14,727 nt of DNA from the IMG/VR virus record IMGVR_UViG_2579778539_000002. One strand, written 5' to 3'. Positions 4,674 to 12,769 of the stretch are shown one piece after another. Origin of the DNA: a virus (taxonomy: Duplodnaviria > Heunggongvirae > Uroviricota > Caudoviricetes). How positions within the stretch are numbered: the stretch's first letter is position 1; each line of letters opens with the position of its first letter. A program made the translations under genes and the position numbers. The notes beneath the pieces were generated by a model. It was not told where the DNA came from and ran no database searches. It was given only the letters and a program-made list of their open reading frames with translations.

Positions 4674-5992
4674 CAGTGAAATACTACGCCATTCTGACTA
4701 ATCAGGGCGCAGCACGGCTGGCTAACGCGACGATGCTCGGCAGTAAGCTGAATCTGACGCAAATGGCCGTTGGTGATGCGAATGGTGTCTTGCCGACACC
4801 AGACCCGGCACAGACAAAACTGATTAACCAGAAACGCATCGCGCCGCTGAATCTTCTGAGTGTTGACCCGAACAACCAGAGCCAGATTATTGCGGAGCAA
4901 ATCATCCCTGAGAACGAGGGCGGATTCTGGATCCGTGAGATTGGGCTTTATGATGATGAAGGCGTACTCATTGCGGTGGCGAACTGCCCGGAAACGTACA
5001 AACCGCAGTTGCAGGAAGGCAGTGGTCGTACCCAGACTATCCGCATGATTCTGGTTGTCACGAATACCGAAGCTATCACGCTGAAAATCGACCCGTCGGT
5101 GGTACTGGCGACCCGTAAATACGTGGATGATGAAGTCCTGGAATTAAGGCTGTATGTGGATGACCAGATGAGAAACCACATTGCCGCACAGGATCCTCAT
5201 ACACAGTATGCGCAGAAACATAATCCGACATTTACCGGAGAACCAAAAGCGCCGACGCCTGCCGCAGGAAATAACACCACGCGGATTGCGACCACTGCGT
5301 TTGTTCAGGCCGCTATTACCGCTCTGATTAACGGTGCGCCAGCCACGCTGGACACACTGAAAGAAATTGCCGCAGCCATTAACAATGACCCGAAATTCAG
5401 CACCACCATTAACAATGCGCTGTCAGGTAAGCAGCCACTGGATGAGACGCTGACTCATTTGAGTGGAAAGGATGTAGCTGGTCTTCTCGCATACCTTGGT
5501 TTGGGAGAAGGCTCTGCATTACCGGTTGGTGTGCCTGTTCCGTGGCCTTCAGCCACTCCGCCAACAGGCTGGCTGAAATGCAATGGTGCGGCTTTTTCTG
5601 CTGAAGAATACCCGGAACTGGCAAAGGCTTACCCGACCAATAAATTGCCTGATTTACGTGGTGAGTTTATTCGTGGCTGGGATGATGAACGTGGTGTGGA
5701 TAGTGGGCGAACTCTGCTTTCATCGCAAGGAGATGCTATTCGAAACATTACTGGCGGTTTTGGTCAGTTGCGCGTAAACAGCGAAATTAATGCAATTGTC
5801 GATGTTCAAAGTGTGAGTGGGGCTTTTTACGGAGGTACCTCAGTCCGGAATAACATCAATGTGTCTATGACATACGCTAATGACCGAAAAATCCGACAAG
5901 ATGTTCACTTCTCGGCGGCAAATGTTGTTCCAACAGCAAATGAAAATCGTCCACGTAACATCGCCTTTAATTATATTGTGAGGGCTGCATGA
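4670..5992 (+). CDS. H: Tail fibre protein H (440 aa): constant N-terminal part (aa 1 to ~280) fused to the currently expressed variable C-terminal part, with a recombination site inside the gene
   Basis: N-terminus resembles the P2 H / Mu S fibre N-terminal domain. C-terminal part carries a phage tail-collar-like motif (WLKCNGAAFSAEEYPELAKAYP...LPDLRGEFIRGWDDERGVD). Start overlaps the I stop (ATGA). The 26-bp hix-like site at 5484..5509 is in frame. Confidence 0.85.
   Translation: MTVKYYAILTNQGAARLANATMLGSKLNLTQMAVGDANGVLPTPDPAQTKLINQKRIAPLNLLSVDPNNQSQIIAEQIIPENEGGFWIREIGLYDDEGVLIAVANCPETYKPQLQEGSGRTQTIRMILVVTNTEAITLKIDPSVVLATRKYVDDEVLELRLYVDDQMRNHIAAQDPHTQYAQKHNPTFTGEPKAPTPAAGNNTTRIATTAFVQAAITALINGAPATLDTLKEIAAAINNDPKFSTTINNALSGKQPLDETLTHLSGKDVAGLLAYLGLGEGSALPVGVPVPWPSATPPTGWLKCNGAAFSAEEYPELAKAYPTNKLPDLRGEFIRGWDDERGVDSGRTLLSSQGDAIRNITGGFGQLRVNSEINAIVDVQSVSGAFYGGTSVRNNINVSMTYANDRKIRQDVHFSAANVVPTANENRPRNIAFNYIVRAA
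5484..5509. repeat. Left recombination site, hix/gix-like 26-bp element (TTCTCGCATACC-TT-GGTTTGGGAGAA), inside H
   Basis: The 15 bp at 5496..5510 (TTGGTTTGGGAGAAG) are a perfect inverted repeat of 7389..7403. Overall form is two 12-bp half-sites around a central dinucleotide, similar to hixL as recalled (TTCTTGAAAACC-AA-GGTTTTTGATAA). Confidence 0.6.
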
Positions 5993-6594
5993 TGAATAAA
6001 GCTGTATTAAATAGTGAACTCATTGCCATAAAAGCGGGAGACATTATCATTTATAATTATGATGGTGAAACGCGTGAATATATTTCTACATCAACTGAAT
6101 GTCTCGCTGTCGGCGTCGGTATCCCGGCATGTTCTTGTTTAGATGCACCAGTTACACATAAAGCTGGTTATGCAATCTGCCGTTCTGCAGATTTTAACTC
6201 ATGGGAATATGTGCCAGACCATCGCGGTGAAATCATCTATAGCACCGAAACAGGAGAATCGAAAGAAATCACAGCTCCGGGTGATTACCCTGAAAATACA
6301 ACCACTATCGCCCCGTTAACGCCATATGATAAATGGGATGGTGAGAAATGGGTGACGGATACTGAGGCACAGCATAGTGCCGCAGTAGACGCGGCAGAAG
6401 CACAGCGCCAGTCACTGATTGATGCAGCAATGGCTTCCATTAGTCTGATTCAGCTGAAATTACAGGCCGGACGGAAGTTGACGCAGGCAGAAACAACCAG
6501 ACTTAACGCTGTGCTGGATTACATTGACGCGGTGACGGCAACAGATACCAGCACCGCGCCGGATGTCATCTGGCCTGAACTGCCGGAGGCGTAG
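5989..6594 (+). CDS. G: Tail fibre assembly protein G (201 aa), partner of the currently expressed H variable part
   Basis: Start overlaps the H stop (ATGATGA). C-terminus has the tail fibre assembly motif (LDYIDAV...DTSTAPDVIWPELP). Longer than the 175 aa I recall for P2 G. Confidence 0.75.
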   Translation: MMNKAVLNSELIAIKAGDIIIYNYDGETREYISTSTECLAVGVGIPACSCLDAPVTHKAGYAICRSADFNSWEYVPDHRGEIIYSTETGESKEITAPGDYPENTTTIAPLTPYDKWDGEKWVTDTEAQHSAAVDAAEAQRQSLIDAAMASISLIQLKLQAGRKLTQAETTRLNAVLDYIDAVTATDTSTAPDVIWPELPEA

Positions 6595-7018
6595 GCCATT
6601 CAATATCTGGCGCACCGGAAGTATCGACCAGCACCAGTGCGTCCAGATAATCCAGCCACAAATTATATTGCGCCAGTTCGTCATCTTTCAGACGACCAAT
6701 AGCGGCTTTACCGGGCCATTGCTTACTGTTCATGTATTCGTTGGCCTGGTTAATTAGTAGCTGTCTTTCTGATTCAGTAATTTCAATAAGCTCTTCATGC
6801 GTGGGTGGAGGAATATCTGCCCACGCAGGCATCCCATCATCTCCGGCAATACGGATTTTTCCTTGTGGCGGTTCAGCCATAAACTCACTGATAATATTTT
6901 GATTCACCTCCTTTGCATCTGATAAATCCCATCCCTCTGATTTATATTTATCAATCATATCCACAGGGAAAAAAGCATTATGCCTTGCGCTATAAACATA
7001 TTCGTTCATATAAATCAC
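6566..7018 (-). CDS. Alternative tail fibre assembly protein (G', 150 aa) in the silent orientation
   Basis: C-terminus (LWLDYLDALVLVDTSGAPDIEWPTPP) parallels the G C-terminal motif. Sits directly downstream of the alternative fibre segment on the minus strand. Its 3' end overlaps the G 3' end by 29 bp. Confidence 0.65.
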   Translation of the reverse strand: MIYMNEYVYSARHNAFFPVDMIDKYKSEGWDLSDAKEVNQNIISEFMAEPPQGKIRIAGDDGMPAWADIPPPTHEELIEITESERQLLINQANEYMNSKQWPGKAAIGRLKDDELAQYNLWLDYLDALVLVDTSGAPDIEWPTPPAVQAR

Positions 7019-7029
7019 CCTGAATAAAA

Positions 7030-7443
7030 TTACTCACCAACAGCCCACCAACTGTAATTCATCGATACTGTGGAACTGGTTGATGCAGTTCTGTAAGCGG
7101 AATTAAAACCGGTTAATGTTGGGCCTTCTGCAGTCATCATGAACCCTCGCCCAGCACCTAAAGGCGCACCACCATCACCAGAATGAGTAAGCATGGCGCA
7201 GTCCACTTTTTTAGGAAAAGGGATGCTGAATGTAATTCTCATTGTTTGCGTCGATAATGTCGGCGTAACCGCACCACGACCATATTGCAGGATTTTCCCG
7301 TTGGGTAATTTCATCCATCCATCACCACTGGCAAAAGAGGCCATGTCCGGTATCTGATTTTCCCCTGTCCCCACATCCCGTTTTGCCGCTTCTCCCAAAC
7401 CAACGTTTATGAAAATGCAGAGATAACGGGCAACTGGCATCAT
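7030..7443 (-). CDS. Alternative tail fibre variable C-terminal segment (H'v); no promoter of its own expected, would fuse to the H constant part after inversion
   Basis: Minus-strand ORF reads through the right recombination site. Residues GLGE at aa 15-18 are encoded by the inverted repeat in the same frame as GLGE (aa 277-280) of H. The ATG at 7441-7443 lies outside the segment and may not be a real start. Confidence 0.6.
   Translation of the reverse strand: MMPVARYLCIFINVGLGEAAKRDVGTGENQIPDMASFASGDGWMKLPNGKILQYGRGAVTPTLSTQTMRITFSIPFPKKVDCAMLTHSGDGGAPLGAGRGFMMTAEGPTLTGFNSAYRTASTSSTVSMNYSWWAVGE
7390..7415. repeat. Right recombination site, hix/gix-like 26-bp element (TTCTCCCAAACC-AA-CGTTTATGAAAA)
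   Basis: Contains the reverse complement of the 15-bp core in H. Central dinucleotide AA is the complement of TT in the left site, as inversion requires. Lies 55 bp upstream of the invertase start. Confidence 0.6.
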
Positions 7444-7470
7444 CTCCGGTTTTTATTCAGGGGGATGCTC

Positions 7471-8064
7471 ATGCTTATTGGCTATGTACGCGTGTCAACA
7501 AATGACCAGAACACGGAATTGCAGCGTAACGCGCTGGAGTGCGCAGGATGCGAGCGGATTTTTGAGGATAAAATCAGCGGCACGAAGTCCGACCGACCGG
7601 GACTGAAAAAACTGCTCAGAACATTATCAGCAGGTGACACTCTGGTAGTCTGGAAGCTGGACCGGCTGGGGCGTAGTATGCGGCATCTGGTCATTCTGGT
7701 TGAGGAGCTGCGCGAACGCGGCGTTAATTTTCGCAGCCTGACAGATGCTATTGATACCAGCACGCCGATGGGGCGTTTTTTCTTTCATGTGATGGGTGCC
7801 CTGGCTGAAATGGAGCGAGAACTCATTGTCGAGCGGACACGCGCTGGACTGGAAGCGGCCAGAGCCAAAGGGCGTATTGGTGGCAGACGTCCGAAGCTCA
7901 CCGCGAGTGAGTGGGAGCAGGCCGGGCGGTTGCTGGCTGCGGGGGAATCTCGTCAACGTGTGGCGCTGATTTTTGATATTGGCCTGTCCACGCTCTATAA
8001 AAAATTCCCCTCATCAGCGACAAAGAATAAATTGTGTCATCCCTTAGCCAACCGGGACAAATAG
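7471..8064 (+). CDS. Serine site-specific DNA invertase, Gin/Cin/Pin/Hin family (197 aa from ATG 7471; in-frame ATG at 7465 would add 2 aa)
   Basis: N-terminus MLIGYVRVSTNDQNTELQRNAL carries the catalytic-serine motif (Ser9) typical of small serine recombinases and is near-identical to Gin/Pin as recalled. C-terminal HTH-like region (GLSTLYKKFP). AGGGGG Shine-Dalgarno 6 nt before 7471. Confidence 0.9.
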   Translation: MLIGYVRVSTNDQNTELQRNALECAGCERIFEDKISGTKSDRPGLKKLLRTLSAGDTLVVWKLDRLGRSMRHLVILVEELRERGVNFRSLTDAIDTSTPMGRFFFHVMGALAEMERELIVERTRAGLEAARAKGRIGGRRPKLTASEWEQAGRLLAAGESRQRVALIFDIGLSTLYKKFPSSATKNKLCHPLANRDK

Positions 8065-9326: not shown

Positions 9327-9845
9327 ATGGCAATGCCGCGCAAACTCAAGTTAATGAACGTCTTTCTGAACGGCTACAGCTATCAGGGCGTTGCAAAGTC
9401 CGTCACGCTGCCAAAACTGACCCGTAAGCTCGAAAACTATCGCGGTGCGGGGATGAACGGCAGCGCACCGGTAGACCTCGGCCTTGATGACGATGCGCTG
9501 TCAATGGAGTGGTCGCTCGGGGGCTTCCCGGATTCGGTTATCTGGGAGCTTTACGCCGCAACCGGCGTGGATGCCGTGCCGATTCGTTTTGCAGGCTCTT
9601 ACCAGCGCGACGATACCGGCGAAACGGTGGCCGTCGAAGTGGTCATGCGTGGACGTCAGAAAGAAATCGACACCGGCGAGGGCAAACAGGGAGAAGACAC
9701 CGAGTCGAAAATCTCCGTGGTCTGCACCTATTTCCGGCTGACGATGGACGGTAAGGAGCTGGTCGAAATTGACACCATCAACATGATTGAAAAGGTGAAC
9801 GGCGTCGACCGGCTGGAGCAACACCGCCGCAATATCGGCCTGTGA
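9327..9845 (+). CDS. FII: Tail tube protein FII (172 aa)
   Basis: Length matches P2 FII. AAGGAG RBS at 9313-9318. Synteny. Confidence 0.85.
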   Translation: MAMPRKLKLMNVFLNGYSYQGVAKSVTLPKLTRKLENYRGAGMNGSAPVDLGLDDDALSMEWSLGGFPDSVIWELYAATGVDAVPIRFAGSYQRDDTGETVAVEVVMRGRQKEIDTGEGKQGEDTESKISVVCTYFRLTMDGKELVEIDTINMIEKVNGVDRLEQHRRNIGL

Positions 9846-9850
9846 TTTTC

Positions 9851-9871
9851 ATCCGGTCAGCCTGGCTGGCC
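9851..9871 (+). other. GC-rich hairpin (CCGGTCAGCC / GGCTGGCCGG arms) immediately after the FII stop
   Basis: Near-perfect inverted repeat read from the sequence. Only TT follows, so it is at best a weak or partial terminator or an RNA-stability element. Confidence 0.35.
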
Positions 9872-9901
9872 GGTTAACCCTGATTCAGAAGTGAGAAAAC
9901 C

Positions 9902-10177
9902 ATGAACAAAGAAAATGTCATTACCCTGGACAATCCGGTCAAACGTGGTGAGCAGGTTATCGAACAGGTCACGCTGATGAAACCCAATGCCGGGACGCTA
10001 CGCGGTGTCAGTCTGGCTGCGGTTGCAAACTCCGAAGTCGATGCACTGATTAAGGTGCTGCCGCGCATGACGGCACCGATGCTGACCGAGCAGGAAGTCG
10101 CCGCGCTGGAACTGCCTGACCTTGTGGCGCTGGCCGGTAAGGTGGTCGGTTTTTTGTCGCCGAACTCGGTGCAGTGA
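9902..10177 (+). CDS. E: Tail assembly chaperone gpE (91 aa)
   Basis: Length matches P2 gpE. Lies between tube and tape measure, the conserved chaperone position. Confidence 0.75.
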   Translation: MNKENVITLDNPVKRGEQVIEQVTLMKPNAGTLRGVSLAAVANSEVDALIKVLPRMTAPMLTEQEVAALELPDLVALAGKVVGFLSPNSVQ

Positions 10178-10329
10178 CGTTTCCAAAAAATCTCTCGGTC
10201 GATGACCTGATGGCGGATGTGGCAGTGATATTTCACTGGCCGCCATCAGAACTGTATCCCATGAGCCTGACCGAACTCATCACATGGCGCGAAAAGGCGC
10301 TCCGGCGAAGCGGAAACACGAATGAGTAA
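9902..10329 (+). CDS. E+E' fusion made by programmed -1 frameshift (about 143 aa)
   Basis: Heptamer T_TTT_TTG at 10150..10156 is in the correct phase of the E frame. The -1 frame is open from there to TAA at 10327-10329, overlapping the T start. Confidence 0.6.
10150..10156 (+). promoter_or_regulatory. -1 ribosomal frameshift slippery heptamer T_TTT_TTG for E/E'
   Basis: X_XXY_YYZ pattern in the E zero frame, 7 codons before the E stop. Conserved tail chaperone frameshift arrangement. Confidence 0.6.
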
Positions 10330-12769
10330 CAATGTAAAATTACAGGTATTGCTCAGGGCTGTTGACCAGGCATCCCGCCCGTTTAAATCCATCCGCACAG
10401 CGAGTAAGTCGCTGTCGGGGGATATCCGGGAAACACAAAAATCACTGCGCGAGCTGAACGGTCACGCATCCCGTATTGAGGGATTCCGCAAGACCAGTGC
10501 ACAGCTCGCCGTGACTGGTCATGCACTTGAAAAGGCACGGCAGGAGGCCGAAGCCCTTGCCACACAGTTTAAAAACACCGAACGTCCGACCCGTGCTCAG
10601 GCGAAAGTGCTGGAATCAGCAAAGCGAGCGGCGGAGGACTTACAGGCGAAATATAACCGCCTGACGGATTCCGTTAAACGCCAGCAGCGGGAACTGGCCG
10701 CTGTGGGAATTAATACCCGCAATCTTGCACATGATGAGCAGGGGCTGAAAAACCGTATCAGTGAAACCACCGCACAGCTTAATCGTCAGCGCGACGCACT
10801 GGCGCGTGTCAGTGCGCAACAGGCAAAACTTAACGCAGTAAAACAGCGTTATCAGGCCGGAAAGGAACTGGCCGGAAATATGGCCTCAGTGGGCGCTGCC
10901 GGTGTGGGGATTGCGGCGGCGGGAACGATGGCCGGAGTTAAGCTGCTGATGCCAGGTTATGAGTTTGCGCAGAAAAACTCAGAATTGCAGGCCGTGCTAG
11001 GAGTGGCAAAAGACTCCGCCGAAATGACCGCACTCCGCAAGCAGGCGCGCCAGCTCGGCGACAATACCGCAGCCTCGGCGGATGATGCGGCCGGTGCGCA
11101 GATTATTATTGCGAAAGCCGGTGGGGATGTTGATGCCATTCAGGCGGCAACGCCGGTCACGCTGAACATGGCGCTGGCGAACCGCCGCACGATGGAAGAA
11201 AACGCCGCCCTGCTGATGGGGATGAAATCCGCCTTTCAGCTTTCAAACGATAAGGTCGCTCATATCGGGGATGTTCTCTCCATGACGATGAACAAAACCG
11301 CCGCCGATTTTGACGGCATGAGCGATGCGCTGACCTATGCCGCACCTGTGGCAAAAAATGCCGGTGTCAGCATTGAAGAAACCGCCGCAATGGTCGGGGC
11401 GCTGCATGATGCAAAAATCACAGGCTCAATGGCGGGGACGGGAAGCCGTGCCGTGTTAAGCCGCCTGCAGGCACCGACGGGAAAAGCATGGGATGCACTC
11501 AAAGAGCTTGGAGTGAAAACCTCAGACAGCAAGGGAAACACCCGGCCAATATTTACCATTCTGAAAGAAATGCAGGCCAGTTTTGAGAAAAACCGGCTCG
11601 GTACTGCCCAGCAGGCTGAATACATGAAAACTATTTTCGGGGAGGAGGCCAGCTCAGCCGCCGCCGTGCTGATGACTGCCGCCTCAACCGGAAAGCTGGA
11701 CAAACTGACCGCTGCGTTTAAAGCCTCAGACGGGAAGACCGCCGAGCTGGTAAATATCATGCAGGACAACCTAGGCGGTGACTTTAAAGAGTTTCAGTCC
11801 GCTTATGAGGCAGTGGGGACTGACCTGTTTGACCAGCAGGAAGGCGCGCTGCGTAAGCTCACGCAGACGGCCACAAAGTATGTGTTAAAACTCGACGGCT
11901 GGATCAAGAAAAACAAATCACTGGCGTCAACCATCGGCCTCATTGTCGGTGGTGCACTGGCGCTTATTGGCATCATCGGTGCCATTGGTCTTGTCGCCTG
12001 GCCGGTTATCACCGGCATCAATGCCATCATCGCGGCAGCAGGCGCAATGGGGGCAGTCTTCACGACGGTTGGCAGTGCTGTTATGACCGCCATCGGGGCT
12101 ATTAGCTGGCCGGTTGTGGCCGTGGTGGCCGCAATTGTCGCCGGGGCGTTGCTTATCCGTAAATACTGGGAGCCTGTCAGCGCATTCTTTGGCGGTGTGG
12201 TTGAAGGGCTGAAAGTGGCATTTGCGCCGGTGGGGGAACTGTTCACGCCACTTAAGCCGGTGTTTGACTGGCTGGGTGAAAAGTTACAGGCCGCGTGGCA
12301 GTGGTTTAAAAACCTGATTGCCCCGGTCAAAGCCACTCAGGACACCCTGAACCGTTGCCGTGACACGGGGGTCATGTTCGGGCAGGCACTGGCTGACGCG
12401 CTGATGCTGCCGCTTAATGCGTTCAACAAACTGCGCAGTGGTATTGACTGGGTACTGGAAAAACTCGGTGTTATCAACAAAGAGTCAGACACACTTGACC
12501 AGACCGCCGCCAGAACTCAAGCCGCCACGTATGGCAGCGGTGGTTATATTCCGGCGACCAGCTCTTATGCAGGCTATCAGGCTTATCAGCCGGTCACGGC
12601 ACCGGCTGGCCGCTCTTATGTGGACCAGAGTAAAAACGAATATCACATCAGCCTGACGGGTGGCACTGCGCCGGGGACACAGCTTGACCGCCAGTTACAG
12701 GATGCGCTCGAAAAATACGAGCGGGATAAACGTGCGCGCGCTCGTGCCAGCATGATGCATGACGGTTAA
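10322..12769 (+). CDS. T: Tail tape measure protein T (815 aa)
   Basis: Length matches P2 gpT. Long coiled-coil-like N-terminal part, Gly/Ala-rich hydrophobic segment near aa 540-600, position after E/E'. Confidence 0.9.
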   Translation: MSNNVKLQVLLRAVDQASRPFKSIRTASKSLSGDIRETQKSLRELNGHASRIEGFRKTSAQLAVTGHALEKARQEAEALATQFKNTERPTRAQAKVLESAKRAAEDLQAKYNRLTDSVKRQQRELAAVGINTRNLAHDEQGLKNRISETTAQLNRQRDALARVSAQQAKLNAVKQRYQAGKELAGNMASVGAAGVGIAAAGTMAGVKLLMPGYEFAQKNSELQAVLGVAKDSAEMTALRKQARQLGDNTAASADDAAGAQIIIAKAGGDVDAIQAATPVTLNMALANRRTMEENAALLMGMKSAFQLSNDKVAHIGDVLSMTMNKTAADFDGMSDALTYAAPVAKNAGVSIEETAAMVGALHDAKITGSMAGTGSRAVLSRLQAPTGKAWDALKELGVKTSDSKGNTRPIFTILKEMQASFEKNRLGTAQQAEYMKTIFGEEASSAAAVLMTAASTGKLDKLTAAFKASDGKTAELVNIMQDNLGGDFKEFQSAYEAVGTDLFDQQEGALRKLTQTATKYVLKLDGWIKKNKSLASTIGLIVGGALALIGIIGAIGLVAWPVITGINAIIAAAGAMGAVFTTVGSAVMTAIGAISWPVVAVVAAIVAGALLIRKYWEPVSAFFGGVVEGLKVAFAPVGELFTPLKPVFDWLGEKLQAAWQWFKNLIAPVKATQDTLNRCRDTGVMFGQALADALMLPLNAFNKLRSGIDWVLEKLGVINKESDTLDQTAARTQAATYGSGGYIPATSSYAGYQAYQPVTAPAGRSYVDQSKNEYHISLTGGTAPGTQLDRQLQDALEKYERDKRARARASMMHDG

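Follow-up and report, generated by a model that had tools for sequence, protein, structure and literature searches.

Programmed frameshifting at the E/E+E' locus of a P2-like Escherichia coli prophage: conservation of the slippery heptamer and a candidate upstream element

The tail chaperone frameshift of phage lambda, which yields gpG and gpGT, was reportedly worked out by Levin et al. in 1993 and by Xu et al. in 2004, 2013 and 2014. For phage P2, the abstract of Christie et al. 2002 is said to describe E' as essential and the shift as occurring at a frequency of about 10%. The passage on P2 in PMC3091744, which cites Christie et al. 2002 and Xu et al. 2004, gives a -1 frameshift at TTTTTTG as the source of a 91-aa E and a 142-aa E+E' and describes the site as one without a downstream hairpin. 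A review (PMC5009743) counts the P2 site as one of the G-T type tail frameshifts and puts its efficiency at 2- to 3-fold that of lambda. The P2 E/E+E' pair is a textbook case of the conserved tail-chaperone frameshift. Here, we analyze the corresponding locus in a stretch of 14,727 nucleotides (IMG/VR virus record IMGVR_UViG_2579778539_000002), which we refer to as the window and whose coordinates are used throughout.

Positions 9327-10400 of the window are 99.3% identical to phage P2 (AF063097 / NC_001895). Across the 451 nt around E/E', 2 nt differ from P2, and neither lies in or adjoins the heptamer: the substitution at 9987 replaces Ser29 of P2 E with Asn29, whereas that at 10185 is synonymous in the -1 frame that encodes E'. 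The P2 record contains both gpE (91 aa) and a two-piece CDS for gpE+E' that covers the same coordinates and carries the annotation 'shares amino terminus with gpE; -1 frameshift; essential tail protein'. Its misc_feature 'site of -1 translational frameshift' maps to window position 10157, the first base past the heptamer. A comparison with the P2 annotation had been proposed in the preliminary description of this locus; both the joined E+E' CDS and the frameshift site match. At the protein level, E and E' are 99% identical to their P2 and Wphi counterparts, and the conceptual E+E' agrees with the deposited Wphi gpE+E' (P0010) at 141/142 residues, sharing the GFL/VAELG junction. By this identity, the locus is P2's own E/E+E' frameshift site, the same element in heptamer, phase, 91- and 142-aa products, FII and T flanks, and 8-nt overlap with T. 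The frameshift is already known, having been published and experimentally shown in P2 (2002); it is real but ordinary, and the finding itself adds nothing new.

The element that carries the locus is a P2-like E. coli prophage with an invertible tail-fibre cassette, not P2 itself. The cassette occupies 5484-8064 and is absent from P2. Its 27-nt inverted repeats (5484-5510 and 7389-7415) have a TTCTCCCAAACC core like that of the Gin/Cin/Hin crossover sites, and it holds an alternative fibre C-terminus (7030-7443, minus strand), a fibre assembly gene (6566-7018, minus strand) and a serine DNA invertase (7465-8064; PF00239 and PF02796). The same invertible-cassette layout is found in KC618326 and phage pro483.

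Coordinates of the E/E+E' features are collected in Table 1. The ORF that encodes E ends with the codons GGT TTT TTG TCG CCG AAC TCG GTG CAG TGA. Because (10150-9902) mod 3 = 2, TTTTTTG is in phase with E as T_TTT_TTG; the zero-frame codons across it are GGT, TTT and TTG, and the E stop follows at a distance of 6 codons. A TAA at 10138-10140 blocks the -1 frame, which then stays open from 10141 to the TAA at 10327-10329. The preliminary description had placed the heptamer in phase with E, counted 58 open codons beyond it, and ended the -1 frame 8 bp into T, which starts with ATG at 10322. The phase, the position at 10150-10156 and the overlap are confirmed. The frame is indeed open to that TAA; however, it contains 57 sense codons past the heptamer, and a count of 58 includes the stop. 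The conceptual E+E' is 142 aa long, with residues 1-85 common to E.

Table 1. Window coordinates of the E/E+E' region and the basis for each assignment.
Feature	Coordinates	Strand	Basis
FII, tail tube protein gene	9327..9845	+	Pfam PF04985 Phage_tube, E = 2.3e-60; gpFII in P2 record
Gene E, 91-aa tail assembly chaperone, TGA 10175-10177	9902..10177	+	PF10109 Phage_TAC_7, E = 2.6e-12; PHROG 103; equals P2 gpE
Shine-Dalgarno-like AAGGTGGTC, candidate upstream stimulator (inferred)	10139..10147	+	16S 3' tail pairing; synonymous constraint
Slippery heptamer T_TTT_TTG, -1 shift site	10150..10156	+	Phase with E; P2 record; conservation in 177/177 loci
E' segment, 57 -1-frame codons plus TAA	10156..10329	+	PF06528 Phage_P2_GpE, E = 2e-22; -1-frame tblastn matches
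E+E' fusion, 142 aa, join 9902..10156, 10156..10329	9902..10329	+	Wphi gpE+E'; P2 joined CDS
T, tail tape measure protein gene	10322..12769	+	Pfam PF10145, E = 2.4e-45; gpT in P2 record

The 18 plus-strand genes of the window contain 8 in-phase canonical heptamers, so the heptamer by itself is unremarkable; taken alone, it is not beyond chance. Among those 8, only the one at 10150-10156 sits at the 3' end of a gene with a -1 ORF that passes the gene end. Both frames are open over 37 nt at this site, and TTTTTTG is the only canonical heptamer in that overlap. A second in-phase T_TTT_TTG occurs at 1897-1903, within the tail completion gene (1658-2110); the -1 ORF from that heptamer spans 37 codons and ends within the same gene, and its presence is probably due to chance.

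Both the PF10109 and PF06528 matches exceed their gathering thresholds. PF10109 is described as tail assembly chaperone E/41/14, and PHROGs agree with the Pfam assignment. E/E' lies between the tube gene FII and the tape-measure gene T on one strand, an order shared with the P2 record. The earlier classification of the site as the conserved G/GT-type chaperone frameshift found between tube and tape measure holds up, given the PF04985 and PF10145 neighbours and the identity with P2 E/E+E'. By analogy, E and E+E' would correspond in P2 to lambda gpG and gpGT, acting as chaperones on T. A sequence search of the PDB found no relative of E+E'.

The practical value of the finding lies in annotation. 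Of 5426 complete RefSeq E. coli genomes, 1583 carry the locus, and the sampled records split E/E' into two genes that are labeled as independent. In the one record opened, E. coli S56 (NZ_CP010242), RefSeq/PGAP gives E' its own 51-aa CDS with a GTG start, named 'GpE family phage tail protein', at locus positions 625-780, equivalent to window 10174-10329, with no ribosomal-slippage join. A join for E+E' is annotated in the phage records of P2, L-413C, FLC10 and Wphi. The Pfam PF06528 model begins at an internal Met (E+E' residue 104, window 10210), not at the junction. The preliminary description had expected pipelines to miss the frameshift and call only E. RefSeq does omit the slippage, but a 51-aa E' ORF is called as well.

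Conservation was assessed across 80 IMG/VR loci, 80 GTDB genome loci (66-100% E identity) and 16 divergent phages, whose hosts are Burkholderia, Ralstonia, Pseudomonas (phiCTX), Klebsiella, Serratia, Enterobacter, Mannheimia, Aeromonas and Microcystis. Across these related loci, E identity falls to about 32%. The preliminary description had staked its reading on conservation of the heptamer and the -1 ORF in P2-like relatives, and this conservation is complete: E' is in the -1 frame relative to E in 177/177 loci having both parts (tblastn), and each of these 177 has an in-phase X_XXY_YYZ heptamer within the overlap. The heptamer is TTTTTTG in 170 loci, TTTTTTA in 3, and TTTTTTT, TTTTTTC, A_AAT_TTT or G_GGA_AAG in 1 each. 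Its first T is kept though the codon to which it belongs varies among GGT, ACT, CTT, CCT and TCT (Gly, Thr, Leu, Pro and Ser). For a synonymous-site test, we used 98 unique sequences with at least 60% E identity and took background codon usage from the same loci. The signal codons are GGT in 97/97, TTT in 98/98 and TTG in 95/98 (the others being TTA), against background usage of 27%, 47% and 5.6%, respectively, and nearby synonymous sites vary freely. By this comparative measure, the heptamer and the frame arrangement are conserved beyond protein-level needs.

Departures from the common heptamer occur in Mannheimia phage 587AP1 (G_GGA_AAG, the lambda type), E. coli phage 503458 (A_AAT_TTT), Aeromonas phage AhyVDH1 (T_TTT_TTC) and Microcystis phage Mae-JY29 (T_TTT_TTT). 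Since distant relatives with other heptamers have the E/E' layout intact, the slip site has been replaced while recoding was retained. In Erwinia tracheiphila ICMP 5845, the -1 frame stays open from locus position 1728 for 506 codons and reaches the locus end without a stop, implying either that the E' stop has been lost or that an indel fuses E' to the tape-measure frame. This locus possibly belongs to a decaying prophage.

Separate genes, as drawn in RefSeq, would require E' to be translated independently, either from a coupled GTG at 10174 or from an ATG at 10210, releasing a free 51- or 39-aa peptide and leaving the heptamer incidental. PGAP calls the 51-aa GTG-start CDS, and the GTG overlaps the E stop (GTGA) in a classic coupling arrangement; however, only 28-29 of about 125 unique sequences offer this GTG as their earliest start, and with TAA or TAG as the E stop its place is taken by GTA. 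In 110/125 unique sequences, no ATG precedes the one at E' codon 18, yet 77/127 have no -1-frame ATG, GTG or TTG ahead of codon 18, and among distant relatives the Met itself gives way to V, A, I or E. E' codons 7-17, which lie between the E stop and the codon-18 Met, show a mean per-site entropy of 0.46, 0.33 and 1.07 at codon positions 1, 2 and 3, the pattern of a sequence evolving as protein, with conserved residues that include F, P, L, S, V, D, D and L. Because this stretch evolves as protein without a start of its own, it is reachable solely by ribosomes coming from E. An independent start would, moreover, leave the frozen in-phase heptamer unexplained, and the fusion product is reported in the literature (PMC5009743, PMC3091744). 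On this comparative evidence, independent initiation is ruled out as a general mechanism, and we regard it as highly improbable for the present locus. The comparative data thereby amount to a proof, from sequence alone, that E' has no start of its own and is entered from E.

Passage from E into E' could also arise one step earlier, if RNA polymerase stuttered on the T6 run (+1 U or -2) and produced an mRNA encoding the fusion directly. Such a homopolymer is present at the heptamer, and its length is labile at some level, as database fusions with T7 or T4 runs attest (P0013, P0011, P0090). Polymerase slippage, though, needs neither a fixed phase nor a fixed seventh base, yet the X_XXY_YYZ phase is found in 177/177 loci and the seventh base is G in 170/177. 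The Mannheimia phage (G_GGA_AAG) and E. coli phage 503458 (A_AAT_TTT) have lost the T run and have no long homopolymer but keep a two-tRNA heptamer. Runs of 6 residues are also shorter than those known to give efficient polymerase slippage in bacteria. Given the fixed phase and seventh base, the non-homopolymeric heptamers in relatives and the shortness of T6, we consider transcriptional slippage extremely improbable.

Public assemblies do contain genes that encode E+E' directly (proteins P0011, P0012, P0090 and P0013). Some of these fusions read ..GF-VAELG.., where the T run lacks 2 bases (22 sequences are represented by P0090); a single one reads ..GFFVAELG.. (T7). These genes are due either to sequencing errors in the homopolymer or to fixed variation, in which case the long form would be their sole product.

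Programmed -1 frameshifting at U_UUU_UUG, by which E and E+E' would both be made from one start codon, is very likely the correct account, and nothing in the sequence argues against it. Production of the fusion by a -1 frameshift is reported for P2 (PMC3091744, PMC5009743) and can be presumed here from signal nucleotides identical to those of P2. On a ribosome translating E, arrival at U_UUU_UUG would place tRNA-Phe at the P-site UUU and tRNA-Leu at the A-site UUG. On a minority of ribosomes, the two tRNAs would shift back by one nucleotide, each then pairing with a UUU codon; slipped ribosomes would go on to read 57 codons in the -1 frame to give the 142-aa E+E'. The majority, which do not slip, would stop 6 codons on and release the 91-aa E, such that the E : E+E' ratio would be set by frameshift efficiency. 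Tandem slippage predicts a junction peptide of ...VVGFLVAELGAVTFPK (Leu85), whereas slippage in the P site only would give ...VVGFFVAELGAVTFPK (Phe). Lambda gpG/gpGT (PMC5009743) and the family assignment suggest that E, and the E part of E+E', would bind the tape-measure protein T. By the same lambda analogy, the E' extension may join the complex to the polymerising tube. Neither E nor E+E' would be expected in the virion.

A downstream stimulatory structure in 10157..10220, which the preliminary description had singled out as worth a search, did not materialize. The 64-nt segment 10157-10220 folds at -14.9 kcal/mol, no better than shuffles (z = 0.28), the first 40 nt are unpaired in the consensus fold of 13 diverse relatives (-1.83 kcal/mol), and scanning by E-value against Rfam returned no match, only chance-level hits. 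We rejected assignment to the class of -1 frameshifts stimulated by a hairpin or pseudoknot 5-9 nt downstream, there being no stable conserved structure just 3' of the heptamer. In an E. coli reporter series, U_UUU_UUG is absent from the efficient heptamers (PMC4066793). A stimulator would therefore help to account for the reported efficiency.

Upstream of the heptamer, the sequence AAGGTGGTC pairs with the 3' tail of 16S rRNA at -12.2 kcal/mol, placing it in the top 0.07% of plus-strand 9-mers in the window. This pairing is comparable to that of the best real ribosome-binding site and is among the four strongest anti-SD sites on the 14.7-kb plus strand. In 159 unique relatives, the same position is the strongest mean anti-SD site within -210 to +150 nt of the heptamer. 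Codon choice within the element is also constrained, with Lys encoded by AAG in 86/87 sequences against a background of 30% and Val by GTG in 92/98 against 36%. When synonymous codons were randomised, the median per-sequence fraction pairing at least as strongly was 0.083, with 18/69 unique sequences at or below 0.05. The sequences behind this constraint are phylogenetically related, and the constraint is seen in the enterobacterial clade. Among distant relatives, an SD-like element falls in the top 0.3-0.6 percentile in 7/13; with the amino-acid sequence held fixed, the enrichment in these relatives is not significant, and we dropped the element as a family-wide feature for that reason.

Only 2-4 nt separate the end of the element from the heptamer, a distance that resembles the short SD spacing of prfB +1 shifting. 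The spacing range searched for SD elements in PMC4066793 was 6-17 nt. In enterobacterial P2-like phages, the signal may be bipartite, with U_UUU_UUG aided by the SD-like AAGGUG(G/A)UC just upstream, whose pairing with 16S would set the ~10% efficiency and thus the E : E+E' ratio. We put this forward tentatively, as an arrangement that we currently think somewhat unlikely. A constrained SD-like sequence could nonetheless explain efficient shifting by a weak heptamer without a downstream structure. A literature search that left Christie 2002 and Xu 2004 outside its scope found no mention of an SD-like stimulator of P2 E/E', and the element, a lead rather than a finding, is possibly a new detail.

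Apart from that of P2, the described frameshifts closest to this site are those of lambda gpG/gpGT and E. coli dnaX. Like E/E', lambda gpG/gpGT is flanked by the major tail (tube) gene and the tape-measure gene, and like the P2 pair, it has no required downstream structure (PMC5009743, PMC3091744). The lambda heptamer is G_GGA_AAG rather than T_TTT_TTG, and gpG/gpGT has no detectable sequence similarity to E/E', which belongs here to PF10109/PF06528. The lambda tail is non-contractile, whereas that of P2 is contractile, and the lambda efficiency is reported to be the lower of the two, by the same 2- to 3-fold margin (PMC5009743). E. coli dnaX (A_AAA_AAG) is likewise a bacterial tandem-slippage -1 frameshift and has an SD-like stimulator upstream; a strong anti-SD-complementary sequence also stands 5' of the heptamer here, in a putative role. 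In dnaX, the SD-like element lies 10 nt upstream and is combined with a downstream hairpin, whereas at the E/E+E' site the spacing is 2-4 nt and there is no hairpin.
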